From positions 53,161 to 117,160 of the forward strand of contig JBNGIO010006265.1 of the NCBI GenBank assembly GCA_049999805.1: a stretch of DNA of 64,000 nucleotides, given 5' to 3'. A model generated the notes under the pieces. It did no database searches. It saw only the letters and a program-made list of their open reading frames with translations, and was not told the DNA's origin. Shown here in pieces: positions 16,054 through 42,422 of this stretch. The translations under genes and the position numbers were made by a program. Source of the stretch: Folioceros fuciformis (lineage: Eukaryota). Each line of letters opens with the position of its first letter. Position 1 is the stretch's first letter.

Positions 16054-16482
16054 ANNNNNNNNNNNNNNNNNNNNNNNNNNNNNNNNNNNNNNNNNNNNNN
16101 NNNNNNNNNNNNNNNNNNNNNNNNNNNNNNNNNNNNNNNNNNNNNNNNNNNNNNGTCCTCGACCTCGACCTCGCTTCAGCTTGTGAAACAAAATCGAAGA
16201 AGCAATCATTGGCGAGCTGGAGCTGGCTTGCAGGCGACGATCCAATGGCCAGCGGTATCACAGAAATTACCACGCCCGAGGTATTCACGGCTCAGGGCGA
16301 GCTCACCGGATCCAATCCATCCCTCGCCGCTCCGACTCATTCATGCAGTCCGATGTCGGATCCGATGGCTCCACGCACCGCGGGAACAAACAAATTTCGT
16401 TCGAATAATTTGTTGGTTTGCCCTTTCCCACCTTATACAATTTTAATATGTAACTTAAGTGATACGGATGTGAGAAGTATAC

Positions 16483-19004: not shown

Positions 19005-20142
19005 ATGGCGAGCAGGGTTGTGGCCCGGCGTCTCGCAGCCTGCGCTACCCGCAGGTTCAGGGGAGACAATATCAGCTTCAGTCCCCAGGCTCTCAGGACC
19101 TTTGCCTCTGCGCCTGCTTGTCAATTTGGAGGTAATTGCCTTCCACCTTCGACTCCTGCTGGTTGGACTTTGCGTCATTCGGGATGCCTGATCTCTTGTG
19201 GAAGGATGGTGATTGGGCGTGATGATGGATCCGAGCTATATGTGTGAAGCATAAGACCTCGTGTAGTCATGCTGGCATTTAAATTCGGGATGGATGCTTT
19301 GGTGCAGAGAATGCAAATGAAGGCCAAATCTCTGGATTTGTTCGCATCCCTCACTTGCGGCACATGAGCGGTGGCGCACAAGGGCTTCCTTCGGTATCCG
19401 ATCCGCAAGTGAAGAAGGCCCTGGCAACGCTCTACGTGAACAACTGGGCGAAAATTGATGATGGCACGAAGAAGATCGTGGAGTCGACCCTGGCCAAGCA
19501 CCGGGATGAAGNNNNNNNNNNNNNNNNNNNNNNNNNNNNNNNNNNNNNNNNNNNNNNNNNNNNNNNNNNNNNNNNNNNNNNNNNNNNNNNNNNNNNNNNN
19601 NNNNNNNNNNNCCTCACGTCTTGGCAGTCGGCTCAAGCGGTGGAGCAGTTTGCAGCAAAACTGATTCATTTAAGGATGGAGCTGGACGAGCTCAGCGGGG
19701 GAAAATTCGGTGGTGAGGTATGAACGCTGTATTTGGGAAGACATAGTGTGGTGTGGTGCAGATTCTGTGCTTCTCTTTTCATTATTCAATCTGTTGCACT
19801 CAGGATGTTGCAGAAATTCCAGAACCAATCGTGAAGGCTCTGAAGTCTGCGTTCGCCCGATACTCCGCTTATTTGTACTCCATTGATGAAAGGACCGAGG
19901 GCTTTTTGAAGAAGAAGGTAGAGTTGGATCTTGGAAGCCTTATGCTGCAAGTCAAGCAGCGCTGCAACGGCTTGGAAGCTGAGTGGGGCGAGGTAATTCT
20001 GGAATGAAATCAACGCTTTGGCTTGTGACTGATAGACATCCTGCACTCTTTCACTGATGCCAAAGCTCTAAATTTGCAGATTGGAGTGCTCGGTACTTCA
20101 GGGCTTGCCGGTTCTTACATCGAGAAGTTTGCTCAAGTCTGA
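19005..20142 (+). CDS. SDH5: Plant-specific mitochondrial succinate dehydrogenase subunit 5
   Basis: Arg/Ala-rich mitochondrial presequence. Spliced exons LPSVSDPQVKKAL..., WQSAQAVEQFAAKLIHLRMELDEL, FLKKKVELDLGSLMLQVKQRCNGLEAEWG, C-terminus LGTSGLAGSYIEKFAQV*. One exon is interrupted by an N gap. Confidence 0.85.
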
Positions 20143-20400
20143 GCACCTGTATTGGCTACATGTTAAATTTTCAGTGAAGAAAGCTAGTTTTATCAGTTAG
20201 AAAACATGACAAGATTCGCGCACTGTAGTTGAACCGACCAAAAAACGGCACTCGCTTAGTTCGTGATTTCGTGAACGCTTTCCCGCTAATTGATCTTTAC
20301 ACGACTGAGAGAACGCGATTGCCTTCATCGAAGATGGCACGTCCGGGCGGTAAATGCTGAAGGACCAGCCGAGTCGGAGGTGGCAATCGTGGGGGAGGAG

Positions 20401-22953
20401 ATGGGAATGCAGCTGGCGATGGGTGTGAGCCTTTTCCCGGATGCCCTCTCGTGCGCGTTGTCAGGCAAGCCAGGATGCCTTCTCCGTGGCAGCCCAGTTT
20501 GTATGACGGGTCATTTGGATGCATTCCCAGTCCAAGCGTCCGTTGCAGGAGTCTCTTCCACACAAGGAGTGACGCAGAGAGAGCGGCAGGAGCTTCTGTG
20601 GCATTATTTCTTCTCGAATCCGTCGGACTGGTGGGACTACAGAGCGGATAAGAGAGGCCCTCGGCATCCTGACTTCAGACACAAGACATCCCAGGAGCCC
20701 CTATGGCTCGACAATTACCACAAGCCTATATGGGTGGATTCGCAGCTGGCCAGCTGGGATGTCCGAATGCGGGCTTCGGCTGCAGCGGCTGGGAATGGGC
20801 AGGGGGAGAATTTGGTGGGCGAGATGTTGAACAGACGTTGCTTGGAAGCCGAGCTCAGGGAGGCTGTTGAAGCGTTGGAGCAACTGGTGCAGCGGGGATG
20901 TCGGATCAGCGGCATTCTCTTTCATCGTTTGCTGAAGAGGTGTGCAGAAGAAAAGGACCTGGAATGTGGTAGGCGCGTGCATTCTCTTGCTGCCACACGG
21001 GGGTTGGCTTCCAACGCGTTTTTGGTGAATCATGTCATTGGTATGTATGCATCTTTTGGCAAATTGGAGGATGCAGTGCAGGTGTTTGGGCAGGTGCCAA
21101 GGCCCAGCATCCACATGTGGTCTTCCATCATTTTGGCGCATGCTCGGCAGGGGCAACCTGCACAGGCCATCAGCTTTTACAGGCAGATGAAACAGTCGGG
21201 CGTGGAGCCGGATAATCACATCTTCGTGGCAGCCCTTCAGGCTTGTGCTCTTGCAGAGGACTTGGTTTCGGGCAAGGAGGTGCATGCTGACATTCAAGCG
21301 AGTGCTGTGAAGGCGGATGTTTTCGTTGGGAACAGCTTGGTCAACATGTATGCTAAGAGCGGCTGCTTGGACGGTGCCCGGAAAGTGTTCGACAGCTTGC
21401 CCAAGAAGGATGTGGTGACATGGACGGCCATGATTGCAGGATATAGTCAGCAGGGGCTTGGGGAAGAAGCTCTGGTACTGTATGCGATGATGCGGAAGGA
21501 GGATGGCATGCTTTCAGCCAATCGTGTTACTTTCGTGTGTCTCCTTCAAGCCTGTGCCAGTGTGGGGGAGAAGGCGCTGCAGCAGGGCAGAGAGCTTCAC
21601 CGGCAGATTCGGGAAAGTCGGTCGGAAGATGATGCAGGCATTGGTAACAGCCTGGTGAACATGTACGCGAAATGCGGCAGCTTGGAGGATGCCCGGGAAG
21701 TGTTTGATGCTTTGCCGAGACGAGATGTTGTGACATGGAATGCCATGATTGCAGGATATGCTCAGCAGGGGCTTGGGCAACAAGCCCTGTCCTTGTATGC
21801 GAGTATGCAAAAGGAGGAGGCTTTACTGTCTGATGCTAATCATGTGACGGTTTCCTGCCTCTTACAAGCATGTGCTAGTGTGGGCGCTCTGCAGCAAGGG
21901 ATGGAGCTTCATTCTCTTTGTCGGGACAAAGGCCTTGAGGCTAACCCAGTCGTAGGCAGCTGCTTGGTTGGCATGTACTCGAAATGTGGGAGTCTAGAAG
22001 ATGCCCGCAAAGTCTTTGACGGATTGCCCTCAAAAAACTTGGTGACATGGACAGCGATGCTGAAGGGATATGCTGAACATGGTGAGGGTCACATGGCAAT
22101 CCGGTGCTTTGAAGATATGCTCCACCAAGGGGTTAAGCCTGATGAGATGACATTTGTATGTCTCATTGTGGCATGCAGCCATGTGGGCCTGGTGCAGGAA
22201 GGCAAGCGGTATTTTAGGATCATGGTGGAGGACTACGGGATCGTACCGTCCGACTACCACCACAGTTGCATGGTTGATCTTCTTGGCCGGTCTGGCAAAC
22301 TGGACGAGGCCGAACATTTGTTGCGAACAACGTCATTCACCAACGGTGTCGTGGGCTGGACAGCCTTGCTCACAGCTTGCAAGACCCACGGTGATGTAGA
22401 GCGGGGAAGACGATCTTTTGACCATCTGGTGGAACTGGAACCTGAGAACTCAACTTCGTACATCCTGCTGGGTAACATCTACGCGGATGCAGGCAGGTGG
22501 GACGACGTGGACAGGGTGGAAAGCTGGAGGAAGTCAGCAGGTGCTGTGAAGAAGCCTGCAAAAGCATGCATCGAAGTGCAGAAGGAGGTGCACGAGTTCA
22601 CAGTAGGGGAAGAGAGGAGGGACATCTCCACGACGCTCAGGTGCGTAAATACGAGGTTGAAGGAGGAAGGAGGCCATGTACCACAAACACAATTGGTGCT
22701 GCAGGCAGTGTCTGAGCAGGAGAAGGAGGATGCCCTGTGCGGGCATGCTGAGAAACTAGCTTTGGCATATGGTCTTCTCAACACCCCAGATGGCACCACT
22801 TTGGTGGTCACCAAGAATTTGCGCATGTGTAATGACTGCCACAGCAGCACCAAGGTCATGTCCCGCCTCGAGAAGAGAGAAATTGTAGTCAGGGATGCAC
22901 ATCGAGTACACCGATTCGTGGAAGGCTCCTGCTCATGTATGGATCGGCACTGA
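20401..22953 (+). CDS. PLS-class PPR protein with N-terminal PDF (OSB-like) motif and DYW:KP (DRH-ending) deaminase domain
   Basis: Intronless ORF with first ATG at 20401. PLS triplets, E1/E2, KKPAKACIEV, HAEKLA, CNDCH, C-terminus SCMDRH. Confidence 0.95.
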   Translation: MGMQLAMGVSLFPDALSCALSGKPGCLLRGSPVCMTGHLDAFPVQASVAGVSSTQGVTQRERQELLWHYFFSNPSDWWDYRADKRGPRHPDFRHKTSQEPLWLDNYHKPIWVDSQLASWDVRMRASAAAAGNGQGENLVGEMLNRRCLEAELREAVEALEQLVQRGCRISGILFHRLLKRCAEEKDLECGRRVHSLAATRGLASNAFLVNHVIGMYASFGKLEDAVQVFGQVPRPSIHMWSSIILAHARQGQPAQAISFYRQMKQSGVEPDNHIFVAALQACALAEDLVSGKEVHADIQASAVKADVFVGNSLVNMYAKSGCLDGARKVFDSLPKKDVVTWTAMIAGYSQQGLGEEALVLYAMMRKEDGMLSANRVTFVCLLQACASVGEKALQQGRELHRQIRESRSEDDAGIGNSLVNMYAKCGSLEDAREVFDALPRRDVVTWNAMIAGYAQQGLGQQALSLYASMQKEEALLSDANHVTVSCLLQACASVGALQQGMELHSLCRDKGLEANPVVGSCLVGMYSKCGSLEDARKVFDGLPSKNLVTWTAMLKGYAEHGEGHMAIRCFEDMLHQGVKPDEMTFVCLIVACSHVGLVQEGKRYFRIMVEDYGIVPSDYHHSCMVDLLGRSGKLDEAEHLLRTTSFTNGVVGWTALLTACKTHGDVERGRRSFDHLVELEPENSTSYILLGNIYADAGRWDDVDRVESWRKSAGAVKKPAKACIEVQKEVHEFTVGEERRDISTTLRCVNTRLKEEGGHVPQTQLVLQAVSEQEKEDALCGHAEKLALAYGLLNTPDGTTLVVTKNLRMCNDCHSSTKVMSRLEKREIVVRDAHRVHRFVEGSCSCMDRH

Positions 22954-23213
22954 GAGACTTCACAAGGGCAGTGCGGAGAAATGCCCTTCTCTTGTATGTC
23001 GCTTGCTGTACTCCTCGGAAGGCCATAAACAATAAATGCGCACCTATGTAACCTCTGGAATTGAAGCATTTGGTCTACGCGGCTAACAACTATGTTTTGT
23101 CCTGGTGGGTTGTTGAACCCTGAACCTTGGGAGGTAGCAGGATTTGACGATTTGAGCGTGACGATTTGATGTTGTCACGGCCAACGGGAGTGCGTGGATG
23201 TTGGTGAGACAAC

Positions 23214-25724
23214 ATGGCGACGCAGGTGGTAGACAGCAAATTGTGGGTTCAATTTGCTCAGATTGCCAGTTTTCCAATGTTGGCGGCCTCAGCGTGTAAG
23301 CAGCCTTGCGCTGCAACGGGTTGGCGGGGTTCTTCTTCCGCCTTGGCCTTCGCCTCCACTCGCAACAGCAGTTGCACTATAGTGGATGAAAGGGTGACGC
23401 AGAGGGAGCGGCAAGAGCTCTTGTGGCAGCATTTCTTCTTGGATCCAGCCGAGTGGTGGGACAACAGGGCGGAAAACAGGGCATCTTCCTCTCCCCGCCA
23501 TCAGCATCCTGACTTCAAGCACAAGACCTCCAGGCTCTCTCTGTGGCTTGACAGCTCTCACAAACCGGATTGGGTGGATGCGCAACTAGCCAGATGGGAC
23601 CAAGGGAGGCGACCGGAGGAGCTGTTCCGGCTGAGCGAGGCTGTGGAAGCGCTGGATGTCCTAGTGCAGCGGGGGTGGGGTTGTCATGTCACGCCTGCTC
23701 TCTTCTGTCGCCTCCTCAAGAGGAGCATGGCTCAAAACGACCTTGTGTTCACCAGGCGCCTGCATTCCCTGGCAGCCGCAAGTGGGCACGGCTCCAACGC
23801 ATTCCTGGTCAACCACATGATTGGAATCTATGCAGCGCATAACAAATTGGAGGATGCGATGCAGGCCTTCTCCCAAGTGCCGGTGCCGGATGTTTACATG
23901 TGGTCTTCCATCATACTGGCGCATGCGAGGCACGGACAACCTGCTCAAGGCATTAAGCTGTATCGGGCGATGCGGGAGCTGGCAGAGGTGGAGCCCGATA
24001 ACCGCCTGTACGTTGCAGCCCTTACGGCTTGCGCTGCTGCGCAGGATCTGCCAGCCGGCAAGCAGGTGCATGCTGATTTGCAGGCAAGTGCTGTGAAGGC
24101 AGACATTTTTCTGGGTAACAGCTTGGTGAATATGTATGCTAAGTGCGGGAGCTTAGTGGATGCTCGCCAAGTGTTCGACACATTGCCTAGAAGAGATGTG
24201 GTCACTTGGACGGCCATGATTAAGGGTTGCACGCAGCAGGGACTCGGTAGAGATGCTCTAGCTCTTTATACACAGATGCAGCAGGAGGGCGTTACTCTGG
24301 CCAACCGGGTCACGTATATGTGCCTGCTTCAGGCCTGTGCCAATGTGGGAGCACTGCAGCAGGGAAAGGAGCTCCATTTAAGGATCCGCGAACAAGGCTT
24401 GGAAGCTGATGCAGCTATTGGCAACTCCCTGGTGAATATGTATGCTAAATGCGGGAACTTGGAAGATGCTTGCGCGGTGTTTGACAGTTTGCCCCAAAGA
24501 GATGTGGTGTCATGGACGGCCATGATTGCAGGATATTCTCAGCGTGGGCTCGGTCAAAATGCCCTGGCTCTGTATAATAGAATGCAGCTGGAGGGGATCA
24601 CTCCGGCCAATCATGTTACATTTGTTTGCCTCCTGCAAGCATGTGCCAGCGTGGCAGCCCTGCAGCAGGGCAAGCAGCTGCACTCCCAAATTCGGGAAAG
24701 AGGCCTTGAAGCTGACGAAGTCATTGGTAACTGTCTAGTTAATATGTATGCTAAATGTGGGAGCCTGGAGGATGCTCGCAGAGTGTTTGACAGATTGCCC
24801 ACCAGAGATTTGGTGACGTGGACAGCTTTGCTTACCGGCTACGCTGAACATGGTGATGGTCACACTGCAATCAGGTGTTTTGAAGACATGCTGCGGGAGG
24901 GAGTTGAGCCAGATGACACCACGTTTACTTGCTTATTTGTAGCGTGCAGTCATGCAGGCCTTGTGCATCAGGGCCAACGTTATTTCAGGATGATGGTCGA
25001 GGACTATGGGATTGTTCCCACTGATAAGCACCAAAGTTGCATGGTTGATCTTCTTGGCCGATCAGGCCAGCTGGAGGAGGCAGAAAGTATGTTGCGAAGT
25101 AGGTCATTTGTGAGGGATGTGGTGGGCTGGACAGCTTTGCTGACTGCCTGCAAAAGCTATGGTGATGTGGAGCGTGGACGTCGATGTTTTGACCGTCTCT
25201 TAGAACTGGAAGCAGATGATGCAAGTTCATACGTGCTTTTGGAGAACATCTATGCCAAGGCAGGCAGGTGGGACGATGTAGACAGGATAGAGAATCTGAG
25301 AAAGACGGCTGGTATTTCGAAGAAGGCTGCCAAGGCGTGCATCGAAGTGCAGAATGAGGTGCATGAGTTCACTGTGGGGGAAGATAGGTCTGACATTTCT
25401 TCCAAGCTGAGGAGTTTGAACCTGAAGTTGAAGGAGGAAGGGGGCCATGTACCACATACACAACTGGTATTGAAGGCAATGTCTGAGGAGGAGAAGGAGG
25501 ATGCCCTGTGTGGACACGCAGAAAAATTGGCGTTGGCATATGGTTTGCTCAACACGCCAGATGGTACAACTTTGGTTGTCACGAAGAATCTTCGTATGTG
25601 CAATGACTGTCACAGCAGCACCAAGATAATGTCACGCCTTGAGAAGCGGGAGATCATAGTGCGAGATGCTCATAGAGTACATCGATTCCTTGATGGAGCT
25701 TGTTCATGTAGGGATCGGCATTGA
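23214..25724 (+). CDS. PLS-class PPR protein with N-terminal PDF (OSB-like) motif and DYW:KP-type (DRH-ending) deaminase domain
   Basis: 836-aa intronless ORF. PLS triplets, E1/E2, KKAAKACIEV, HAEKLA, CNDCH, C-terminus SCRDRH. Confidence 0.95.
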   Translation: MATQVVDSKLWVQFAQIASFPMLAASACKQPCAATGWRGSSSALAFASTRNSSCTIVDERVTQRERQELLWQHFFLDPAEWWDNRAENRASSSPRHQHPDFKHKTSRLSLWLDSSHKPDWVDAQLARWDQGRRPEELFRLSEAVEALDVLVQRGWGCHVTPALFCRLLKRSMAQNDLVFTRRLHSLAAASGHGSNAFLVNHMIGIYAAHNKLEDAMQAFSQVPVPDVYMWSSIILAHARHGQPAQGIKLYRAMRELAEVEPDNRLYVAALTACAAAQDLPAGKQVHADLQASAVKADIFLGNSLVNMYAKCGSLVDARQVFDTLPRRDVVTWTAMIKGCTQQGLGRDALALYTQMQQEGVTLANRVTYMCLLQACANVGALQQGKELHLRIREQGLEADAAIGNSLVNMYAKCGNLEDACAVFDSLPQRDVVSWTAMIAGYSQRGLGQNALALYNRMQLEGITPANHVTFVCLLQACASVAALQQGKQLHSQIRERGLEADEVIGNCLVNMYAKCGSLEDARRVFDRLPTRDLVTWTALLTGYAEHGDGHTAIRCFEDMLREGVEPDDTTFTCLFVACSHAGLVHQGQRYFRMMVEDYGIVPTDKHQSCMVDLLGRSGQLEEAESMLRSRSFVRDVVGWTALLTACKSYGDVERGRRCFDRLLELEADDASSYVLLENIYAKAGRWDDVDRIENLRKTAGISKKAAKACIEVQNEVHEFTVGEDRSDISSKLRSLNLKLKEEGGHVPHTQLVLKAMSEEEKEDALCGHAEKLALAYGLLNTPDGTTLVVTKNLRMCNDCHSSTKIMSRLEKREIIVRDAHRVHRFLDGACSCRDRH

Positions 25725-25979
25725 GCGAACAGATTGTTTGCACTTCCTTGAGGAGGGCATTATGGCAACCTAGATATCACATTTTTTGTACTCTCTCCAA
25801 GAATGTGACCTCGTACTAGTGCAGCAGGAGGGGAAGGTGCCTGGCTCAGAGATTTGTGAAATGGCCCCCCAAGCTCATTCAGCTCAAAGGTTGTTTCTTG
25901 GTTAAATATGATGGCAGAAAGTACCAGCTCGGCCAAATGTTTAACAGAAGATTTTCTGGCGTGCCTCTGCCGCGGTGAT

Positions 25980-26634
25980 GAGATGTATGCAGTATGGTGT
26001 TCAAACGCTTTTAAGATCTTTGGCTTTGCCTGAAGACACTTGGTAGGAAGCTTAACAACAGCGAAATAAGCTACAGTCCTCGGCCTCTGTTGAGCTTGCT
26101 CAAGAGCAGGAGCTCCTGACACTAAGAGCTGCAGGTCCGTACAGTGACATTCATAGCTGTCCTACGTCTGCTCAATGGTTGTACTGATGGTCCTGGGCGA
26201 CCCCATGTTGTAATGTCTGGGCAAGGAGCTTGGGAGTATACCCGTGGAAACTTGCATGGGTCACATTTTTCGCCAGGCAGACCACTTGGAAGAGTGAGAG
26301 TTCGCCGCAGTCTCAATCTTGTAAACCGTGTGGGCTCCAATATAAGTTTTTAATGCAAGGTTACAGGAGGTGTGGAGACAGATCAAGGGCACAGATGTTT
26401 TCAACGTCTAACAAACTGGGGATATTGCTGCCACTTCACTTTTGCTCTTGCCAGCAGTGTATGCCGACTAGGTGGGAGGAAACGCTTGAGAATGTCAGTC
26501 TGAGGAGGATGGGTGGGTGCTGTCAGTATGAGGAGGATGGTTGGTTTTTGTGGACACCAACAAGTGACAAAAAATGTGCAAGTTCGGAGGAGGTCTGCAT
26601 GTGCTCGACGCTGGGAAAGGTGCATATTGACTGA
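25980..26634 (+). pseudogene. Heavily decayed PLS-PPR/E-domain fragment
   Basis: Collinear motif remnants in shifting frames with stops: EMYAVW..AFKIF (S motif), VTFIAVL (L2), TCMGHIFRQADHLEE (S2), CKVTGGVETDQGHRCFQRL (E1), LLLPAVYAD-RWEE...LRRMGG (E2). Confidence 0.7.
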
Positions 26635-27239
26635 CACACAGGGCTAGTGTTCAATTGATCTCAGGTGGCTACGTAACTTCATTCCAAGTTCTCCTATCTG
26701 AACCTGTTTGGGTTGTGCTAATCAGACTCTTACTGAGACCGGCCGTAACCTCGAAACTCAAAAACTAGAACATGGACAAGGAAGCCAGCAAAATCGAACC
26801 TATTAGACTAAAAAGTCGAAGCGAGAATGAACAAAAACAGAGAACATTGAACCGTGAACATCAGAGACTCACCGAGACACCCTCATTGAAGGATCACCCT
26901 AAACATTGAGCTGTAGCTGTAGATGCATGGGTGTGGAGGAAGATTCCCGCGCAATCTGCTTAATCCTTGCCGAGGATGAGTCATACTAGAAAAAAATGCG
27001 GCGGTACCGCTATGGCCGACCAACTCATTTCATCGTAGGTTCGGCGATTCGGGTTAATGGCCGGGAGAAGCCCCTACTGTTGAACTATACAAGATCTTCT
27101 GCTTTCTGAGCGAAGGCCAGCAAGCCGTGGAGCGATTGATATGAAATCACATTCCCTGTTGAATATGCGTGCGTGTTGGTGTAGGATGGACTCAAGCTGG
27201 GCAGGCTTTTGTCTAAATTGAAGTTTTCTGAAGGAATCC

Positions 27240-29819
27240 ATGGCGACGCAGGTGGAGCTGTCCTTGGTTCTTCAGTCTACGTTTGTGGGACGGCAGACTG
27301 ATTTGCATCCGCGCGCTTTGCTGCCATCCTCACCCTCCCAGGCTTGGTTAGGGGGACGCGGAATGGTGTTTCTAGTCTCCCCGGCCGCCGCAGCAGCAGC
27401 TGCCTGTACAGACATTTGTAGAACTCAAGTCACGCAAAGAGAGCGACAGGAGAAATTGTGGCAACTGTTCTTCTCAGACCCTTTCGACTGGTGGGATAAC
27501 AGAGTTGATAAATCAAGCGAACGCCATCCCGATTTCAAGCATAGGACCTCCAAGGAGCCTCTGTGGCTCAACAGCCCCCACAAGCCGGCTTGGGTGGATT
27601 CGCAGCTGGCCAGGTGGGATGTTCAGATGAGGGGGCCTCGTGTTCTGTCTGCACAGGTTGATGATGGTGGTGGTGGTGGTGACCAGATTTTGGTAATCCA
27701 GAGCTTGAGGAAACATTGTCAGGAGGAGGGAGAGCTGAGTGAAGCTGTGGAAACCTTGGATTTGCTGGTCCAAAGGGGATATCGTATTCCCGATGATGTC
27801 TTCTATCGGTTGCTGAGGAGATGCATGGCAGATAAGGATCTGGTTTGTGGTAGGCGTGTTCACTCTCTTGTTGTCACCAGCGGGTACGGGGCTAGTGCAT
27901 TCTTGGCAACCCACATCATTGGAATGTATGCTTCTCATGGTGAATTGGCAGATGCAGCGCAGGTGTTCACCGAAGTGCCCAAACCGAACCTCTTCATGTG
28001 GTCTTCCATTATATTGGCGCATGCTCGGCAGGGCCAGCCCAAGCATGCAATCAAGTTTTATCGACGCATGAGAGCATCCGGTGTGCAGCCAAATAACCAT
28101 ATCTTTGCGGCAGCCCTTAAGGCATGCGCTTCTGCACAGGACCTCGTTTCAGGCAAGGAGGTTCATAATGATATTCAGACTAGTGCAGTGAAGGCCGATG
28201 CTTTCCTTGGCAACAGCCTGGTGACCATGTATGCCAAGTGTGGAAGCTTGAGTGATGCTCGCAAGGTGTTTGAAAGTCTGCCAACTAGGGATGTGGTAAC
28301 ATGGACTGCCATGATTGCAGGTTATACGCAGCAGGGTCTCGGACAAGAAGCTCTGGCTTTGTATGCAAGTATGCAACATGAGGGCGTCACTCCAGCTGAT
28401 CATGTGACATTCTTGTGCCTTTTGCAGGCATGTGCCAGTGTGGGGGCACTGCAGCACGGAAAGCACCTCCACTCACAGATTCGGGAGCGAGGTCTTGAAT
28501 GTGACGTTTTCATTGGTAGCTCCCTTGTTGACATGTACTCAAAATGTGGGAAGATGGATGATGCCCGCAAAGTGTTTGATGGATTGCCGATCAGGAATTT
28601 GGTGACATGGAATGCAATGATCGCAGGATATTCTCAGCAAGGACTTGGGCGAGAAGCCCTGGCCATTTATGCTACTATGCGACATGAGTGCATAACTCCA
28701 GCTGATCGTGTTACGTTTGCGTGCCTGCTCCAAGCATGCGCCAGCGTGGGAGCACTGCTGCAGGGAACGCAAATTCATGGACAGATTCGTGCAAGGGGCC
28801 TTGAGGATGATGTGTTCATTGGCACGTCCCTGGTGGACATGTATTCGAAATGTGGCAGTTTGGAAACTGCTCGCAAAGTTTTTGACGGATTGCCCACAAA
28901 AGTTGTCGCGACTTGGAACGCTCTTCTCATTGGCTGTGCTGAACACAGTGACGGTCACATGGCTATGCAATGCTTTGAAGAGATGCTTGAGCAGGGTGTA
29001 CAGCCAAACGAGAAAACGTTTACTTGTCTCTTGGTGGCATGCAGTCATGCAGGCCTGGTGCAGGAGGGCAGGAAGTATTTCAAGACGATGGTGGAGGACT
29101 ATGGGATTGTGCCGACCGACTACCACAATAGCTGCATGGTCGATATTCTTGCCCGGGGAGGCCAACTGGATGAAGCTGAAAACATGCTGCTTACTACCTC
29201 ACTTGTGAATGAGGCCGTGGGCTGGACATCTTTGCTGAATGCTTGTAAAATCTATGGCGAGATAGAGCGTGGACAACGATGCTTTCATCATCTGTTTGCA
29301 TTGCAAGCAGATGATGCAAGTGCATATGTTCTATTGGGTAACATCTATGCAAATGCGGGCAAGTGGGATGAAGTGGATAGAATAGAAAGCTTGAGGAAGT
29401 CAGTAGGTGCCATGAAGAAGCCTGCAAAGGCTTGCATTGAGGTGAAGGATGAGGTGCACGAGTTCACCGTAGGGGAAGACAGATCTGACATTTCATCGAA
29501 GCTGAGGAGTGTCAACTCACGATTGAAAGAGGAAGGAGGACATGTGCCACATACACAGTTGGTGTTGAGGGCAGTGTCTGAGCAGGAGAAGGAAGATGCA
29601 CTGTGTGGACATGCCGAAAAGCTAGCCCTAGCATACGGTCTGCTCAACACTCCAGATGGTGCAACTTTACTCGTTACCAAGAATCTTCGCATGTGCAATG
29701 ACTGCCACAGTAGCACCAAGATAATGTCATGTCTGGAGAACCGAGAGATAATAGTAAGGGACACGCATCGGGTACATCGATTTTCAAACGGGTCCTGTTC
29801 TTGTGGGGACAGGAATTGA
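27240..29819 (+). CDS. PLS-class PPR protein with N-terminal PDF (OSB-like) motif and DYW:KP deaminase domain (DRN ending)
   Basis: 859-aa intronless ORF. KKPAKACIEV, HAEKLA, CNDCH, C-terminus SCGDRN. Confidence 0.95.
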   Translation: MATQVELSLVLQSTFVGRQTDLHPRALLPSSPSQAWLGGRGMVFLVSPAAAAAAACTDICRTQVTQRERQEKLWQLFFSDPFDWWDNRVDKSSERHPDFKHRTSKEPLWLNSPHKPAWVDSQLARWDVQMRGPRVLSAQVDDGGGGGDQILVIQSLRKHCQEEGELSEAVETLDLLVQRGYRIPDDVFYRLLRRCMADKDLVCGRRVHSLVVTSGYGASAFLATHIIGMYASHGELADAAQVFTEVPKPNLFMWSSIILAHARQGQPKHAIKFYRRMRASGVQPNNHIFAAALKACASAQDLVSGKEVHNDIQTSAVKADAFLGNSLVTMYAKCGSLSDARKVFESLPTRDVVTWTAMIAGYTQQGLGQEALALYASMQHEGVTPADHVTFLCLLQACASVGALQHGKHLHSQIRERGLECDVFIGSSLVDMYSKCGKMDDARKVFDGLPIRNLVTWNAMIAGYSQQGLGREALAIYATMRHECITPADRVTFACLLQACASVGALLQGTQIHGQIRARGLEDDVFIGTSLVDMYSKCGSLETARKVFDGLPTKVVATWNALLIGCAEHSDGHMAMQCFEEMLEQGVQPNEKTFTCLLVACSHAGLVQEGRKYFKTMVEDYGIVPTDYHNSCMVDILARGGQLDEAENMLLTTSLVNEAVGWTSLLNACKIYGEIERGQRCFHHLFALQADDASAYVLLGNIYANAGKWDEVDRIESLRKSVGAMKKPAKACIEVKDEVHEFTVGEDRSDISSKLRSVNSRLKEEGGHVPHTQLVLRAVSEQEKEDALCGHAEKLALAYGLLNTPDGATLLVTKNLRMCNDCHSSTKIMSCLENREIIVRDTHRVHRFSNGSCSCGDRN

Positions 29820-30774: not shown

Positions 30775-33084
30775 TCAATTCCGATCCCCACAGGAACAAA
30801 CGCCTTCCACGAATCGATGTACTCGATGGGCATCTCTCACAATTATCTCTCGTTTCTCAAGTTGTGACATGATTTTGGTGCTGCTGTGGCAGTCATTGCA
30901 CATGCGAAGGTTCTTAGTGAGAATCAAACTGGTGCCATCTGGTGTGTTTAAAAGTCCATAGGCCAAAGCCAATTTCTCCGCATGACCACACAAGGCGTCT
31001 TCCTTTTGCTGCTCAGAGACTGCCTTAAGTACCAACTCCGTTTGAGGCAAATGCCCTCCTTCCCACTTCAACTTGGTCTGCAGGCTTTTCATCTGTGAGG
31101 AAAGGTCCGACCTCTGTTCGCCTACCGTAAATTCGTGGACCTTGTTCTTCACTTCTATGTAAGCCTTCGCAGCTTTTTTCATAGCACCTGCCGCCTTCCT
31201 CAGGCCTTCTATTTTACCCACGTCATCCCACCTGCCCGCGGTTGCGTAAATGGTTCCTAACAGCACATACGAACTTGCGTCATCTGCTTCCAATTCCACA
31301 AGACGATCAAAGCAGCGTACTCCCCGCTCTACATCACGATGGCCTTTGCACGCACTCAACAACGCGGTCCACCCCACGACTTCGTTCACAAGGGACGTAG
31401 TTCGCAGTATATTTTCAGCCTCATCCAGCCTCCCTGAACGACCAAGGAGATCAACCATGCAAATGTAGTGATGCTCAGTAGGCCCAATACTATATCCCTC
31501 CACCATCCTCCTGAAATACTCCTTCCCCTCCTCCACTAGGCCTGCATGACTACAAGCCACCAAGAGAGAAATAAAAGTGGTCTCATCAGGCTCGACGCCC
31601 TCCTCAACCATATCTTCAAAGCACCGGATCGCCATCTCACCATCACCATTCTGAGCGTACCCATTAATCAGGGCATTCCATGTCACCACAACCCTGCTGC
31701 ACAAGCCGTCAAACACCCTACGAGCATGCTCCAAACTCCCACACTTCGCATACATGTCGACCAGGCAGCTCCCAATAAACACATCATTCTCAAGCCCACT
31801 TTCACAAATCTGCGAGTGAGCCTCCATCCCCTGCTGCAAAGCACCCACACTCCCACACGCTTGAATCAGCCCCAGAAACGTAACATGATCCGCTGCAGCC
31901 CTGCCCTCCCTCCTCATAAGCCCATATAGAGCAAGGGCTTCCCGCCCCAGCCCCTGCTGCGAGTACGCAGCAATGATAGCATTCCACGTCACCACATCCC
32001 GCCTCACAAGCCCGTCAAACACCTCCCGAGCCTCCTCTAAGCACCCGCATCTCGCGTACATGGTGACCAAGCAATTCCCAACCACAGCATCACCGTCCAT
32101 CCCCCTCTCCCTCACCCGCAAGTGCAACTCCCTCCCCTCCTCCAACGCCCTCAACCCGGCGCAAGCCTGGAGCAGGCAAACAAAAGTAACCTGATCAGCC
32201 AGAACCACCCCATTCTCCTGCATCCTCCTGTACAACCCCAGAGCCTCCTCCTCGCGCCCTTGCTGCGAATACCCCGCAATCATAGCAGTCCAAGACACCA
32301 CATCCTTATCCCCCAGTCCGTCAAAAACCCTCCGAGCATCCCCCAAGCTCCCGCACTTGGCATACATATTCACCAAACTGTTCCCCACAAACACATCACC
32401 CTCCACCCCACTCGCCTCCATGTCCCTATGCACCTCCTTCCCAGCCCCCAAATCCTGCCCATCCGTACAGGCCTTGAGCACCGCCGCGAAGATATGATTA
32501 TCCGGCCTCACGCCAGCCTGCCGCATCCGGCGGTACAGCCCCACAGCCTCCGCGACCCTTCCTTGCTGCGCATGCGCCAAGATAATCGACGACCACATAA
32601 ACACATTGGGCTCATCCACAGCAGCGAACACCTGCATTGCGTCCCCCAGCTCCCCAAGAGCGGCGTACATCCGGATCACATGGTTGGCCAAGAACGCGTC
32701 CGCCCCGTACCCGCTCGCCAGAGCAACCCAATGAACCCTCCTTCCCAGAGACAGGTCCTTCGCCCCCACACACCTCCTGAGCACCCGGTACAAGACCGTG
32801 CTGCTGGCACGGCATCCCCGCTGCACCAGGAGCTCCAACTCCGCCACATCCTCTCCCAGCCCCTGCGCCTCTCCGCGGCTTCCAAGCCCCTGCACTTGAC
32901 GGACGTCCCATCTACTGGCCCCGCTGTCGTGGTTCTGCATCAGCCTGGAAGAAGCTGCAAGAGCATCGCACTGGCCTTGTGCAAGGAAACTGCGGCGCAC
33001 GCACTCCCCAGCGGTCGCCATCAACTCAGACCCTGCATCGAGCAGGCTGGGGAGGGCCTGCAGTGCCGGTGGCATCATCGCCAT
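30775..33084 (-). CDS. PLS-class PPR protein with DYW:KP-type deaminase domain (DRN ending), lacking the PDF motif
   Basis: Intronless ORF with first ATG at 33084. KKAAKAYIEV, HAEKLA, CNDCH, C-terminus SCGDRN. Confidence 0.95.
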   Translation of the reverse strand: MAMMPPALQALPSLLDAGSELMATAGECVRRSFLAQGQCDALAASSRLMQNHDSGASRWDVRQVQGLGSRGEAQGLGEDVAELELLVQRGCRASSTVLYRVLRRCVGAKDLSLGRRVHWVALASGYGADAFLANHVIRMYAALGELGDAMQVFAAVDEPNVFMWSSIILAHAQQGRVAEAVGLYRRMRQAGVRPDNHIFAAVLKACTDGQDLGAGKEVHRDMEASGVEGDVFVGNSLVNMYAKCGSLGDARRVFDGLGDKDVVSWTAMIAGYSQQGREEEALGLYRRMQENGVVLADQVTFVCLLQACAGLRALEEGRELHLRVRERGMDGDAVVGNCLVTMYARCGCLEEAREVFDGLVRRDVVTWNAIIAAYSQQGLGREALALYGLMRREGRAAADHVTFLGLIQACGSVGALQQGMEAHSQICESGLENDVFIGSCLVDMYAKCGSLEHARRVFDGLCSRVVVTWNALINGYAQNGDGEMAIRCFEDMVEEGVEPDETTFISLLVACSHAGLVEEGKEYFRRMVEGYSIGPTEHHYICMVDLLGRSGRLDEAENILRTTSLVNEVVGWTALLSACKGHRDVERGVRCFDRLVELEADDASSYVLLGTIYATAGRWDDVGKIEGLRKAAGAMKKAAKAYIEVKNKVHEFTVGEQRSDLSSQMKSLQTKLKWEGGHLPQTELVLKAVSEQQKEDALCGHAEKLALAYGLLNTPDGTSLILTKNLRMCNDCHSSTKIMSQLEKREIIVRDAHRVHRFVEGVCSCGDRN

Positions 33085-34525
33085 CACCTGAGTCCTCGAC
33101 ACGATCCTTCGGCAGCCAGGAGCGACAATCCATCCATTTGTTAGTGCTGAGCTATGTCGGCCCGCTGCTCAGGACTCGTTGGCGTAATTCTAGTCTTCGA
33201 TCCTGCGTCACTGATGGAACATCCTTTGAAAGTCATCACGTCTCATGATTAATAAGTCGAGTCTATAGAACAGGGGATTCGGGACCAGGCAATCGATCCG
33301 GACACTCCTTCCTTATTGCAACAACCGATCGTTTTGTAACATTCATCGTTTCCGTTTCAAGAATGTGGGAGTTATGTTGTGTGAAAGTCTTCTTAGAAGG
33401 TGTGTGAACCCGTAGACTCATAAGCTAAGTTGGGCTTCTAACCACAAAGTGTTGAAATCGCCAAGAGTGTAGTTTTAAAAGGGGATGGCAAGTTAGGCCA
33501 CGACGGTATGACCGGTGGGTGATTGTTAATATCTTTGCCTCTCGCAAGACAATGAGCCCACCTAGACTCTAGGTGTCCTTGTACCTAGGTAAGCATGGTA
33601 TGTAGATAGCCTTTAGTCCTTCTCAGACTCGGCCTCCGCTATACTTCCTCTGCACATCCTCAACAATTTGACTTGGTTCTTGGATGCTTGGATAACAATG
33701 TCATTCTACTTTCAAGTTGAGATGCATGCAGAACAATGAGCGCGAATTTTGGTCCTACTCACATTCTAGAGATATGTCACCAAACTCAATCCTAACAAAC
33801 ATTGTGAGACAAATCACCAATTTGAGACCTAGCACACACAATAGAGATAGAGATAGGTCACCAATCTCGATTTTAGGGCACATTCATTGTAGAGACAAGA
33901 CACAATATAGGGTTGGTGATCCCAAGCTAGTCCACTTGATCATGAGAAGAGAGGAGCTAAGAAGCTCATCTCATGGAAAAGGAGGCAAAAGATCATCCTT
34001 TACTTCAATCCTTTATAAAGAGTAGTTAGCCCTCTTGGTATGATTAAAGGAGACTTAGCGTCGTTGCACATGCTATATATGTCGTGTAAGGGATTGTTTA
34101 TTAATATAAATATTTCAAATTGTTTATTAATATAAATATTTCAAAGAGTAGTTCATCTTAATTTCTAGCATCCGTAAAAATAAAATTCTAGGTATGGGAA
34201 AGAATATGCATCATTTCTCTAAGAATGAGCTAAGATAAACACGCTCATACATTTTTAAAGGATAATCTAGTATAATTATATTAATAAAAAAATCACGCCA
34301 CAAAAATTAGAGTAACCGGACTGTGTGGAGGGTATACTCCACCTGATTCGGTGGTCGAAATATTATCGCAACCAGAAGGAACCGAGAGATTGTCCCATCT
34401 TACCGGAAAGTTTCAACTTGTCCCCTAAGTCAGGTCATTTTAGCGTTGCTAGTGAAGGCCTCGTAGGGTTTTGGCGCAGACGAGACTTTGTTGGAATCAG
34501 CAGCTCCTGACAATCCGAGTGGACG

Positions 34526-36265: not shown

Positions 36266-37663
36266 CTACAATCTCATCTGCTGCAAGAAGCCGAGGTTAA
36301 GGGTATCCCGAACCATTAACACAACTCCGATGGCCAGCAGTAGCAAAATGCCGGAAGACATGATCCCCTGCTCCACGCCGGAGGGCAGCTTCTTGCCCCC
36401 ACGAAGCGCTTCCACCACGATGAGTGCGAGATAACCTCCATCCAGAGCCGGCAGAGGCAGCAAGTTCACCACTGCCAAATTAATGTTCACAATGGCCGCG
36501 AATTGAAACAGACCGGCGATGTCGGATCTGGCAACCTCGGCTCCCACAGCCACAATGGCCACGGGGCCAGACAGCTTGTCTGCCGTTTGCGCGAAGTTGA
36601 AGACGATCTGCTGGAGCCCGTCCACCACTACGTTGGTGAGCCTAGAAAACTCCTTTCCTGCGTACCCGGCCGCCTCCACCACGCTCTTGGTCCGTACCCT
36701 CTGCGTGAGGGCATTCGGCGAGAGCTGCACCCCGATCTTCCCCGACCCATCATATCCCTGGTCTGGAATGACTTCCACATCCACAGTCTCCCCCCCGCGC
36801 TGCAGCTGGAAGAAGAGCGTCTTCCCCGCACTCCGCTTGATGGTGTCCACTAGCTCCAGAACAGACGGCTCCTCGGCCCCCAGGACCACCCCGTTNNNNN
36901 NNNNNNNNNNNNNNNNNNNNNNNNNNNNNNNNNNNNNNNNNNNNNNNNNNNNNNNNNNNNNNNNNNNNNNNNNNNNNNNNNNNNNNNNNNNNNNNATAAC
37001 ATCCCCTCCGAGAAACCCCGCCCTGGCGGCAGCCGAGCTGGACACCACCTCGGGCACCAGCACCCCGGGCCGAAACCTTTGCTCTAGCAACCCCACCGTC
37101 TGCGCCTGCGCGAACAGCACGCTGTAGGCGAAGATCACGTTGGCGATGACGCCCGCCGAGATCACGAGCGCCCGGTCCCGGATGGGCCGATTCTTCAGAA
37201 GATCGGGGTCGTTCGGGGAGAACTCGCTCTCGGGGTCATCGTCCGGGAAGGCGACGAAGCCTCCCAGCGGGATGGCCCGCACCGAGTATTCCACGCTCTT
37301 CCACTGATACTTCACCAGCTTGGGCCCGAACCCAATGGCGAACTGCGTCACGTGGATGCCAAGCAACCGAGCCATGGAGAAATGCCCGCACTCATGCACT
37401 GTCACAATCGCCGCCAACACTCCGAGAGCTTGCAGAACGGATTCTGGGCCCTCCAGATTGATGCCCGCCAGGGACGCCTGGATCGCCCGCGCCCGCAGCC
37501 GGCAGCCCTGCGTCCCCCCTTGCCTCGTCCGAATCCGAAATTGCAGATTCAGCCGAGACTGGGAACCCAGCCGAGACTGCATCCGCCGCAGAGCCGGCGT
37601 GCACGCGCAGGCGCAGGTGGATGTAGCCATCCCCCCCGCTGCCAGCCTAGCGCTGGCCGCCAT
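36266..37663 (-). CDS. ARASP: Plastid site-2/RseP (M50) intramembrane metalloprotease with PDZ domain (ARASP-like), apparently intronless, spanning an N gap
   Basis: HECGH zinc motif, FAIGFGP, RAIPLGGFV, PDZ-like region, NLLPLPALDGG. Transit-like N-terminus from ATG 37663. Confidence 0.92.
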   Translation of the reverse strand: MAASARLAAGGMATSTCACACTPALRRMQSRLGSQSRLNLQFRIRTRQGGTQGCRLRARAIQASLAGINLEGPESVLQALGVLAAIVTVHECGHFSMARLLGIHVTQFAIGFGPKLVKYQWKSVEYSVRAIPLGGFVAFPDDDPESEFSPNDPDLLKNRPIRDRALVISAGVIANVIFAYSVLFAQAQTVGLLEQRFRPGVLVPEVVSSSAAARAGFLGGDVXXXXXXXXXXXXXXXXXXXXXXXXXXXXXXXXXXNGVVLGAEEPSVLELVDTIKRSAGKTLFFQLQRGGETVDVEVIPDQGYDGSGKIGVQLSPNALTQRVRTKSVVEAAGYAGKEFSRLTNVVVDGLQQIVFNFAQTADKLSGPVAIVAVGAEVARSDIAGLFQFAAIVNINLAVVNLLPLPALDGGYLALIVVEALRGGKKLPSGVEQGIMSSGILLLLAIGVVLMVRDTLNLGFLQQMRL

Positions 37664-37963
37664 GGTTGCGCCTCCCAAACTCCTGCTCCTGCTCTCCCTT
37701 CGACCTGTTTGCTGCTTCTCTTGCTGCCTCCGCTTCCGGGTCAGATGACCAGCGGTCTGCAGCTTCTCAGGGAAGCACCAGGCGATCACCACTTCCGGCA
37801 CTAGGGAAGGAGCCTGAGCGCCCGGAGCAAGGCCGCTCCTCGGGGAACGATGCTTGGCTGGCCACGGAACCTCGACCCCCGGTAGAACTCGTGGCGACGA
37901 TTTTTTCGTGACCCCACACTTCGGCGGGGATAACAGGCAAAATCAAAGGTGTCTTCAGTCGGG

Positions 37964-40900
37964 TTAAACACCTCCTTCTCCGAGGCTGTGTTTCCAGGTC
38001 TCTCCTCTGGGGGCGGAAGGATGGTCTTTATCATCAGCGACGGCCACAGATGATGGAACATGTTTTATCTTCGGCATTAGGGTTCTTGGTCGAATCCGGG
38101 AATTGTTGCCATGGCCGGCCAGGAAGGTATGCACTACACCGTTCGTGTCTGTCCAAAAGCTGCGGCCGGGCTTCTTCCATGCCTTGATCCTTTTCCTCCT
38201 GGCCTGCACTTCTTGTGCTGATTGGAACATGCGGGCAGCTATGTATATGTTGGACATCAAGACGTATGCTGTCGCGTCATTCTTGTCCAGCTTCATTGCC
38301 TCGTCGAAGGCAAGGCGTCCCACCTCGACGTTGCACCACATTCGACAGGCAGCCAGCAGGGTGTACCATACAGCTGCGTCGCGTTGAACTGGCATAGTCC
38401 TGATGAGATGTAGAGCCTCTTCCAGTTGGCCTGCACGGCCTAGGAGGTCCACCATGCATGTGTAGTGGGGCTCCGTGGGGGTGATGCCGTGTTGTGTAGT
38501 CATGGCCTCGAAGTACTCTCTCCCCTTAGCCACTAGACCTGAGTGGCTGCACACCGTCAAGACGCTGAGGAATGTGAGGCTGTTTGGTTGTCTGCCATCG
38601 TCCCTCATTGTTTGGAGCAAGTGGAAGACCAACTTGCTATCTCCCTGGCTGGTGTAGCCTGCAATCAGTGTGTTCCAGATGACGATGTCGTGTTCGGGCA
38701 CCGCATCGAATACCTGCTGAGCATCAAGCATGCTCCCGGACTTGGCATACATGTTGACCAGGCTGCCGGCTACACAAATATCAGCTTGAAGCCCTTCTTC
38801 CACAATTTGTGCATGAAGCTGCCTGCCCAGGTGCAAGGCTGCCACATTCGCACATGCCTGCAGGACGCACACGAATGTTACGGCGTTGGGTTCGACCGTG
38901 CTGTCTTCTTGCATGGCTCTGTAGAGACGAAGGGCATCCTGCTCCATACCTTGCTGGGAATACCCTGCTATCATAGCATTCCATGTCACCACATCCTTCT
39001 GGCCAAGCCTGTCGAATATTCTCTGTGCATCTTCCAGGCTGCCACACTTAGCATACATGTTCACCAGGCTGTTGGCTACAAACACGTCAGCTTCGTGTCC
39101 TTGTTCTTTGATTTGTGCGTCGATTTGTTTCCCCTTCTCCAACGCTGCCGGGGTGCCCACACTTGCACATGCCTGCAGTAGGCAAACCAGTGTCACGGCA
39201 TCAGGTACAGCCATGCCGCCGTCTTGCATAGCACTGTACAGACGAAGAGCTTGCTGCCCCTCGCCCTGCTGGACATACCCTGATATCAAGGCAGTCCACG
39301 TTACCAAGTCCTTCTGACCAAGGCCGTCAAACACTCTCTGAGCACTTTCCAAGCTGCCACACTTAGCGTACATGTTCACCAAACTGCTGGCAACAAATAC
39401 TTCAGCTTCATGACCTCGTTCTCTGATTTGCATATGAAGATGCTTCCCCTTTTCCAATGCGGTGCTGCCCATTGAGGCGCATGCCTTCAGGAGGCACACG
39501 TATGTCACGGAATCGGGTGCTGCAATGCCTTCAAACACTCTTTGTGCACTGTGAAAGCTGCCACACTTTGCATACATGTGCACCAGGCTGTTGGCTACAG
39601 ACACATCGGCATCATGTCCTCGTTCTTTGATTTGTACATGAAGCTGCTCACCCATCTCCAATGCTGGGGTGCCGATGCTTGCACATGCCTGTAAGAGGGA
39701 GACAAATGTTATGGCATTCGGTTCAGTCTTGCCTTCTTCTAGCATAGCACTGAAGAGTCGAAGAGCCTTTTGCCCCATGCCCTGCTGGGAATACCCACCT
39801 ATCATCGCATTCCACGTCACCGCATTCTTTACGTCCAGCCCGTCAAACAGTCTCTGTGCATCTTCCCAGCTCCCACACTTGGCATACATGTTCACCAAAC
39901 TGTTTGCTACGAACCTATCGGCTCCAAATCTTCCTTCTTTGATTTGAACATGGAGCTGCTTCCCCTGCTCCAACCCCATGGTGCCCAAACTTGCACATGC
40001 CTGCAGGAGGGACACAAATGTCACAGAATCGGGCACAGCAGTGCCTCCTTTTTGCATAGCACTGTACAGGTGAAGGGCTTGCTTGCCCATTCCCCGCTGT
40101 GAATATGCTGCCATCATAGCATTCCATGTTACCACGTCCTTTTGACCAAGTCCTTCAAACACAGTCTGCGCATCCTCCAAGCTACCACACTTTGCATACA
40201 TGTTCACCAAACTATTACCGACAAACACATCACCTTCAAGTCCTCGTTCTCTGATTTGCACATGAACCTCCTTCCCTCTCTCTAACTCTGGGGCACCCAC
40301 AATTGCACAAGCCTGCAGAAGACACACGAAAGTCACGGAATTGGGTACAGCAATCCCTTCCTCCTCCATAGCATCATATAGACAGAGAGCTTCCTTTCCC
40401 ATGCCCTGCTGGGAATAACCTGATATCATGGCAGTCCAGGTCACCACATCCTTCTGACCAAGTCCGACAAAGACTCGTTCAGCATCCTTCAAGCTGCCAC
40501 ACTTTGCATACATATTAACCAAACTGTTGGCTGTAGACCCATGAAGTTGGTGTCCTTGTCTTCTAATTTGCGCATGAAGTTGCTTCCCAGTCTTCAATGC
40601 TGGGAGGCCTATACTTGCACATGCTTGCAAGAGGCACTTGTACGTCACGGAATTGGGTACAGCAATGCCCTCTTCTTGCATAGCACTGTACAGACGAAGG
40701 GCTTCCAGTCCCATATCCTGCTGGGTATATCCTGCTATCATTGCAGTCCAAGTCACCACATCTTTGTCACCAGGTCTGTCAAAGACCCTTTGAGCTTCGA
40801 CCAAATTTCCACACTTGGCATACATGGTCACCAAAGCGTTACGAACAAACAAATCACGGTCCAAGCCACTGTTCAACACATCAGCATGGACCTCCTGCCC

Positions 40901-41581: not shown

Positions 41582-42422
41582 GGCTCTCCGACGAAACGAA
41601 CAAAAGATGCCAATCACGGCAGCTCGTCAACAGTCAGGATAATTCAGCAACAGGCGCCATCAGCTGGGCAATCCTCGTGCCCGAAATGGACGGTACTAGA
41701 AACCCGCTGGGCCCGAAATCCCACAGAACATCTTAACATGCAGCCTCGTTTCTGAAGGCGTGTTGAACCCATTTGCGAGATGAACACCACATGATTTTTG
41801 CATTCGAGGAAAAAATCCATTCATGATGCCTTCTTACTTTCATGCCCACCACTGACACGTTCTAACCAGCTTACATCTGTGTGTATGCGCATGAGTGCAA
41901 TTGGTGGAATGGTTTCCGGCTCATGCATCTCTAACAGATGACAAGCCTTACAGTGTGCTGTCCACCATCTCTTATTTCCCAAGTTTGTCTCCAACCCACA
42001 GTCTCCCCCATTTCTGCAAACAGCGCCTTAAGACAGGGCAGCGCTTTTCACACTCCTCAGCTGACAACTGCGAGAGACTTCCCAGGATTCGTTTACCTTG
42101 CCAAGCTTTCCCCCATCCTCACATCTGCCGAAGCATACGCATTTGCAGGGTCTACTGAAACAAGATGGCACAAGACCACCGTGCTCTTCGTAGCTTCTCG
42201 ACGAGGGGTGCAACATGCGACTCATCCAAATTAGCACCACTGAATAATCACATTCAGTTGGCCCCCCGTCCGTAAAAGCCCCGTGTATAGCGGGCACCGG
42301 ACCGAGCCGTAGCTCGACGTGCACGAGACCCTTCCCAGGTGTGTCACTTGTTATCCGTGCGGGAAAAACATTTCCTGTTAGATTTACGGTTCAGTTAAGC
42401 TTGACCCATTATATTTCGACGG

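Follow-up and report, generated by a model that had tools for sequence, protein, structure and literature searches.

What does a motif known from organellar single-stranded DNA-binding (OSB) proteins do at the N-terminus of PPR editing factors? The question is raised by a 64,000-nucleotide stretch of Folioceros fuciformis DNA (assembly GCA_049999805.1, contig JBNGIO010006265.1, positions 53,161 to 117,160 of the forward strand), hereafter called the window, to which all coordinates refer. The usual description of a PPR-DYW editing factor has four parts: targeting peptide, PLS tract, E motifs and DYW domain. In the window, three tandem, head-to-tail, intronless PPR-E-DYW genes (g1, g2 and g3, all on the + strand) also encode a 64-69-residue non-PPR segment, running VTQRERQE...WD, between a presequence of 56-63 residues and the PPR tract. 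A preliminary description of this DNA had reported such a conserved module in three tandem PPR genes. We found it in all three, with profile envelopes at 20584-20760, 23409-23600 and 27444-27620, within 3 nt of the coordinates given earlier, and 37 of 67 columns were invariant across the three copies. No Pfam family was found on the N-terminal ~160 residues of g1-g3 at E ≤ 0.1. Profile matches identify the module as a homologue of the OSB PDF motif, and the three genes appear to join two known modules in an undescribed combination. These genes and a fourth paralog (g4), used for internal comparison, are listed below; the independent E-values (i-E) of the modules come from a profile built from OSB proteins only.

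20401..22953, + strand: g1, PDF-PLS-E-DYW:KP gene; C-terminus DRH; Pfam PPR, E_motif and DYW_deaminase
20401..20568, + strand: g1 presequence, 56 residues; 4% acidic residues, Ser/Thr/Ala-rich
20569..20760, + strand: g1 PDF module, 64 residues; i-E 6.1e-19, profile positions 3-56 of 58
22672..22944, + strand: g1 DYW deaminase domain, KP/DRH type; PF14432, residues 795-885 of the 887-residue open reading frame (ORF), E 1.5e-35
23214..25724, + strand: g2, PDF-PLS-E-DYW gene, 836 residues; C-terminus DRH; box KAAKA
23394..23600, + strand: g2 PDF module, 69 residues; i-E 3e-15
25443..25715, + strand: g2 DYW deaminase domain; PF14432, residues 744-834, E 1.3e-35
27240..29819, + strand: g3, PDF-PLS-E-DYW:KP gene, 859 residues; C-terminus DRN
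27429..27620, + strand: g3 PDF module, 64 residues; i-E 1.3e-16; the copy used for AlphaFold2
29538..29810, + strand: g3 DYW deaminase domain; PF14432, residues 767-857, E 5.1e-36
30775..33102, - strand: g4, paralogous PLS-E-DYW gene without a recognisable PDF module; KAAKA, C-terminus DRN

The module and the OSB proteins

The preliminary description had identified the module as the PDF motif of OSB proteins and had named an OSB-derived hidden Markov model as the check. We took 115 PDF copies from 35 source-named OSB proteins, built such a profile from these copies alone, leaving out window and PPR sequences, and ran it against the six-frame translation of the 64-kb window. It matched the three modules only, at the i-E values listed above and over 53-55 of its 58 positions; the next match in the six frames had an E-value of 6. 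This confirms the identification. In the reverse direction, a profile of the three modules matched 874 proteins at E ≤ 1e-3, 327 of them at E ≤ 1e-10, among 1.84 billion representative proteins. The same profile, used in an indexed search, gave 11 proteins; the names of five of these (E 7.6e-19 to 2.3e-48) are OSB2, OSB3 or organellar single-stranded DNA binding protein 3. A wider profile matched 1163 proteins, with many of the best 120 named OSB1-4. The modules share with OSB PDFs the pattern W..F..P..WWD.R..K....PDFKHK....LW.....P.WV and a length of about 50-60 residues, and the signature residues P33, D34 and F35 do not vary among 39 aligned copies that include the three window copies.

Published descriptions give the PDF motif a length of ~50 residues and a Pro-Asp-Phe signature; it lies C-terminal to an SSB-like domain and is present in the mature OSB protein, and the PDF of AtOSB1 alone is enough to bind single-stranded DNA (ssDNA) (PMC6963530). 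In OSB proteins an SSB-like OB-fold precedes the PDF, which usually occurs in more than one copy, whereas the window proteins have a single PDF before the PPR tract and no SSB. Indeed, no SSB domain was found in g1-g3 (Pfam, E ≤ 0.1), and their PDF is followed by PPR motifs. Since no SSB-like domain precedes the PDF, g1-g3 do not encode OSB proteins. Among ten matches that were not of PPR type, the Pfam SSB domain scored above the cut-off in two (P0029 and P0033), below it in two and not at all in six. A local rescan of 157 proteins (the best 150 of the 874 plus seven from the indexed search) found two PDF copies in 60 proteins, three in 33, four in 20 and one in 29. The OSB-like proteins P0001 (Kingdonia uniflora, 1160 residues), P0002, P0003, P0004 and P0006 carry 9-13 tandem copies; the reviews, in the parts available, describe one to three copies, far below this number. 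PDF copies were also seen together with a kinesin motor domain, or in a protein named 'Interactor of constitutive active ROPs 2' (P0047, Coptis chinensis, 1526 residues; P0038, Striga hermonthica, 1063 residues); these two may be merged gene models or further fusions.

The DNA binding of OSB proteins bears directly on what the module could do in a PPR protein. It might tether the factor to the nucleoid: the PDF would bind single-stranded organellar DNA and hold the protein at transcribing or replicating DNA, and editing would be co-transcriptional. OSB PDFs bind ssDNA, which AtOSB1 and AtOSB2 prefer over double-stranded DNA or RNA (PMC6963530, PMC4166229), and the module, matching nearly the whole OSB profile as given above, scores as a normal OSB-type PDF. 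Between the module and the PPR tract lies a linker that varies in length between paralogs and is unconserved in sequence, as expected of a tether. However, the window proteins have one copy where OSBs usually have 2-4, and a single copy may bind weakly; moreover, g4 is without the module. We consider a tether unlikely, if still credible.

The module belongs to the reading frame of the PPR genes. The g1 ORF is open from 20290 (TTG; 20290-22953, 887 residues), with its first ATG at 20401. In-frame stops lie 9 nt upstream of the ATG in g2 and 21 nt upstream in g3, so that the module is inside the only long reading frame. The presequences of g1-g3 are rich in Ser, Thr and Ala and 4-5% acidic, and that of g1 is presumed from its composition to be an organelle-targeting peptide. 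The longer module of g2 is due to a 5-residue insertion in the loop preceding the PDF.

Enzyme type and PDF-PPR proteins of other plants

The KP-type box is written KPAxA. It reads KKPAKACIEV in g1 and g3 and KKAAKACIEV in g2, with the Pro replaced, and KKAAKA is also found in g4; the name-giving Pro of the KP box is thus not fixed in the local family. HAE and CNDC are present in g1-g3, and the proteins end in DRH (g1 and g2) or, one residue off, in DRN (g3 and g4). Pfam finds PPR repeats, an E motif and DYW_deaminase in all four (DYW_deaminase E 5e-36 to 1.4e-34; families in g1-g3: PF01535 and PF13041 for PPR, PF20431 for the E motif and PF14432 for DYW), and identity to g1 is 68% for g2, 65% for g3 and 62% for g4. 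With a PLS tract, an E motif and a C-terminal DYW domain, g1-g3 are PLS-class PPR-DYW proteins.

It has been reported that PG and KP types have different PG boxes, that the KP active site is HAE, with Ala replacing the Ser of HSE, plus CxxC, and that hornwort KP proteins come in DRH and GRP variants, named by their last three residues (PMC9478123). Because of the KKPAKA/KKAAKA box, HAE, CNDC and the DRH/DRN ends, the window proteins are, by their motifs, of the hornwort DRH-type DYW:KP class, as fits a hornwort origin. They share with it the PLS tract, the E motifs, HAE, CxxC, the altered PG box and the DRH/DRN end. The placement of the module in PPR-E-DYW proteins of KP kind, as given in the preliminary description, is therefore borne out by Pfam domains and motifs alike. 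Hornwort DRH-type KP proteins are candidate and designer U-to-C editors, and synthetic KP proteins consisting of a PLS tract and C-terminal domains, with no PDF, edit U to C (PMC9478123). In contrast to the window proteins, the available part of that description mentions no N-terminal PDF, and its designer proteins begin with a PLS triplet behind a tag.

PDF-PPR proteins were also found in other plants, in a survey that covers the best 150 of the 874 and the best 120 of the 1163 matches and carries no inference on seed plants or other KP proteins. PPR tracts were present in 11 of the best 150 of the 874 representatives; eight of ten long matches were PPR proteins with an N-terminal module; and 15 of the best 120 of the 1163 were PPR proteins by Pfam, 13 of these being separate Diphasiastrum complanatum loci. 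The source-named PDF-PPR proteins are from ferns (Adiantum, Ceratopteris, Pteridium), a lycophyte (Diphasiastrum) and a moss (Sphagnum compactum). Their annotations say only hypothetical or PPR (Adiantum KAI5076972.1, Ceratopteris KAH7415344.1, Diphasiastrum KAJ7570437.1, Sphagnum compactum CAM6033764.1). Like the window proteins, they have their PDF or PDFs directly N-terminal of a PLS-class tract. All 25 PDF-PPR proteins among the matches listed, isoforms excluded, have one to four PDFs ahead of the PPR tract, and most end in E motifs without DYW: a DYW domain was found in two of the 25 (P0175 and P0128), in both cases with a PG box and the end DYW, and 23 have none. None of these fern, lycophyte and moss proteins among the matches listed is of KP type; g1-g3 are the only KP-type examples there. 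Since the relatives are PG-type or DYW-less, the layout is, in general, PDF(n)-PLS-E(-DYW). No named hornwort protein with the module was found among the matches listed, and a near-length search with the g3 module region gave only P0005 among three candidates. The window genes thus share with ferns, lycophytes and a moss a PDF-before-PLS layout that, as far as sequence comparison reaches, is old and inherited.

Diphasiastrum has at least 16 PDF-PPR loci among the matches listed. One of its gene models, P0208 (Diphasiastrum complanatum, 1362 residues), has two PDF sets, at 97-197 and 636-735, in one PPR model and looks like two merged tandem PDF-PPR genes.

The survey also bears on whether the PDF has a role specific to the KP enzyme, either adapting DYW:KP for U-to-C editing or redirecting it to ssDNA. 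A link of the fusion to the KP subclass was implied in the preliminary description, and all three window proteins are indeed KP-type. This link did not hold: among the matches listed, both DYW-bearing relatives are PG-type proteins with a DYW end and the other 23 of 25 have no DYW at all, one of the four local KP paralogs (g4) has no PDF, and synthetic KP proteins edit U to C without one (PMC9478123). A KP-specific role for the PDF is thus largely refuted, and we regard what is left of it as very improbable.

The preliminary description knew of no earlier account of a PDF-PLS-E-DYW:KP architecture, and a PDF-PPR fusion still appears to be undescribed: our literature search found no description linking the PDF motif to PPR proteins, within a coverage that is incomplete and leaves an earlier mention possible, and the main text of the Anthoceros angustus genome paper mentions neither OSB nor DYW. 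The extra domains reported for Physcomitrium PPR proteins are RRM, LAGLIDADG, SMR, NYN, CBS and SAP, with no PDF in the part of the source available (PMC9459714). An analogy in the same source is maize PPR4, which shares with the window proteins an extra nucleic-acid-binding domain N-terminal of the PPR tract, here an RRM, but differs in being a P-class splicing factor and in having the RRM fold. The range of the PDF motif is in any case widened beyond OSB proteins, and the interest of the fusion lies in its conservation across several non-seed plant lineages.

Selection, predicted structure and history of the module

We estimated omega (the ratio of nonsynonymous to synonymous divergence, dN/dS) from Nei-Gojobori counts among the paralogs. 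For the module it was 0.146, 0.143 and 0.105 among g1-g3, compared with 0.160-0.190 for the PPR/E part and 0.042-0.068 for the DYW domain, all of them rough values because dS between the paralogs exceeds 1. The presequences, at a dN of 0.99-1.31, could not be aligned. Despite the roughness of the ratios, the contrast of the module with its flanking segments is plain. The earlier suggestion that the module has been retained under selection in three paralogs is supported by its omega of 0.10-0.15.

A profile scan of the window found no module in g4 or in a fifth PPR ORF (37964-41617). Purifying selection acts on the PPR and DYW parts of g4, whose PPR/E omega against g1-g3 was 0.14-0.16. The gene retains an RWDV junction that resembles the module end of g1 and g3. 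The absence of the module from g4 is probably a secondary loss.

These observations can be set against the idea that the module does nothing in the mature protein, being either a neutral relic or part of a targeting signal that is cleaved off. The module does directly follow the presequence, and g4 has probably lost it. A relic or transit peptide would, however, hardly show an omega of 0.10-0.15 while the presequence and the linker are unalignable; the layout is moreover conserved across hornwort-type, fern, lycophyte and moss proteins, and in OSB proteins the PDF belongs to the mature protein (PMC6963530). We give this idea next to no weight.

An AlphaFold2 model of the g3 module, computed with a 39-sequence alignment, predicted a compact alpha/beta domain (predicted local distance difference test, pLDDT, 94.2; predicted TM-score, pTM, 0.79) with a helix at residues 2-15, short strands at 20-22 and 35-37 and a second helix at 54-65. 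Over the 39 diverse copies, W10, W20, D22, R24, P33, D34, F35 and P52 are invariant, and P17, K27, K38, L44, W45, W54 and V55 nearly so. The aromatic and basic residues among these would suit base stacking and backbone contacts. A search of solved structures by sequence gave no match at E ≤ 1, Foldseek gave none at E ≤ 0.001 (best E 3.6), and in a wide structural search (VIA) the best Z was 3.8, with none at 5 or above. These nulls give no fold assignment and do not show that the fold is new; the model nonetheless offers a confidently predicted PDF fold for which no clear solved counterpart was found.

The same model would also fit a protein-protein module, with the PDF recruiting, or recruited by, OSB proteins, other PDF-PPR proteins or an editosome partner. 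A compact, confident model with conserved hydrophobic and aromatic positions and a charge near neutral is what such a module might look like, but the only published PDF activity that we found is ssDNA binding (PMC6963530). We hold a role of this kind to be distinctly unlikely.

To examine the history of the fusion, we made a tree by a quick method from 59 aligned columns of 163 PDF copies. PPR-linked PDFs cluster in this tree: the label changes 8 times, where shuffling gave a mean of 21.0 and none of 500 shuffles was as low. The window copies belong to a group of 14 rows, 12 of them PPR-linked and two from short proteins (SH-aLRT branch support 91, unstarred), which includes fern proteins and P0005; the pattern of the fern/hornwort-type PPR-linked subset with which they fall is HPDF...LWLNS..KP.WVD. 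Groups holding window copies are not strongly supported (SH-aLRT 91-93, unstarred, on 59 columns only). When the 22 PPR-linked copies were constrained together against 119 non-PPR copies, the log-likelihood was 41.69 above that of the free quick search and the p-value of the approximately unbiased test (p-AU) was 0.793. As the one-clade constraint was not rejected, a single old fusion is compatible with the sequence data. A more ambitious version starts from a single fusion in an early land plant: the PDF would be an ancestral cis accessory of PLS-class editing factors that hornworts, mosses, lycophytes and ferns have all retained, and it would bind single strands non-specifically where the PPR footprint has its 5' edge. 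We think this scenario unlikely as a whole. It is speculation that in seed plants the accessory job passed to separate helpers, for which the MORF/RIP-type factors may be compared.

Function of the module and surroundings of the locus

An RNA bound by a PPR tract has its 5' side at the N-terminal repeats. In the reading that we favour, the products of g1-g3 would be organelle-targeted PLS-class PPR proteins with a hornwort DRH-type DYW:KP domain, in which a flexibly linked, small and independently folding PDF domain stands ahead of the RNA-reading tract. Given the orientation of the PPR tract, the PDF would most likely contact the single strand just 5' of the PPR footprint. The contact would be made through the invariant aromatic and basic residues, without sequence specificity, and would add affinity or keep the target unfolded. 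The PDF would then be a built-in accessory of PLS editing factors generally, and not a part of the U-to-C chemistry. That the PDF is such a non-specific single-strand binder, adding affinity or keeping the site unfolded, we put at a probability of roughly 0.45.

Several points weigh against it. The modules are not basic, with net charges of -1, -1 and 0 in g1-g3. RNA may not be the ligand of the PDF, since OSB1 and OSB2 prefer ssDNA (PMC4166229). As g4 is without the module and yet under purifying selection, the module is dispensable for at least one member of the family. Finally, the roughness of the omega values and the limited support for the groups holding window copies, both noted above, count here as well. 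If the accessory reading is true, the minimal editing machinery of several non-seed plant lineages would gain a part, namely a conserved single-strand-binding domain where the RNA footprint has its 5' end. This could also be relevant to engineered C-to-U and U-to-C editors, which are now built without a PDF.

The remaining observations concern the window itself. It contains five N runs (scaffold gaps; 5043-5142, 16055-16154, 19512-19611, 36896-36995 and 54839-54848) of 410 bases in total, one of which lies ~680 nt upstream of the g1 ORF. The one run (X1) that contains the stretch (share 0.97) includes a contig across the g2-g3 spacer (25598-27591) and is uninformative on transcription and splicing. 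Three other organisms contribute contigs that extend over the module regions, with an identity of about 91-93%. The fifth PPR ORF mentioned above (37964-41617, - strand, 1217 residues) is PLS-class with an E motif, has no PDF module and showed no DYW domain by Pfam at E ≤ 0.001. Next to it, a Peptidase_M50 ORF (E 6.5e-57) occupies 36266-37801 on the - strand and includes the assembly gap at 36896-36995.

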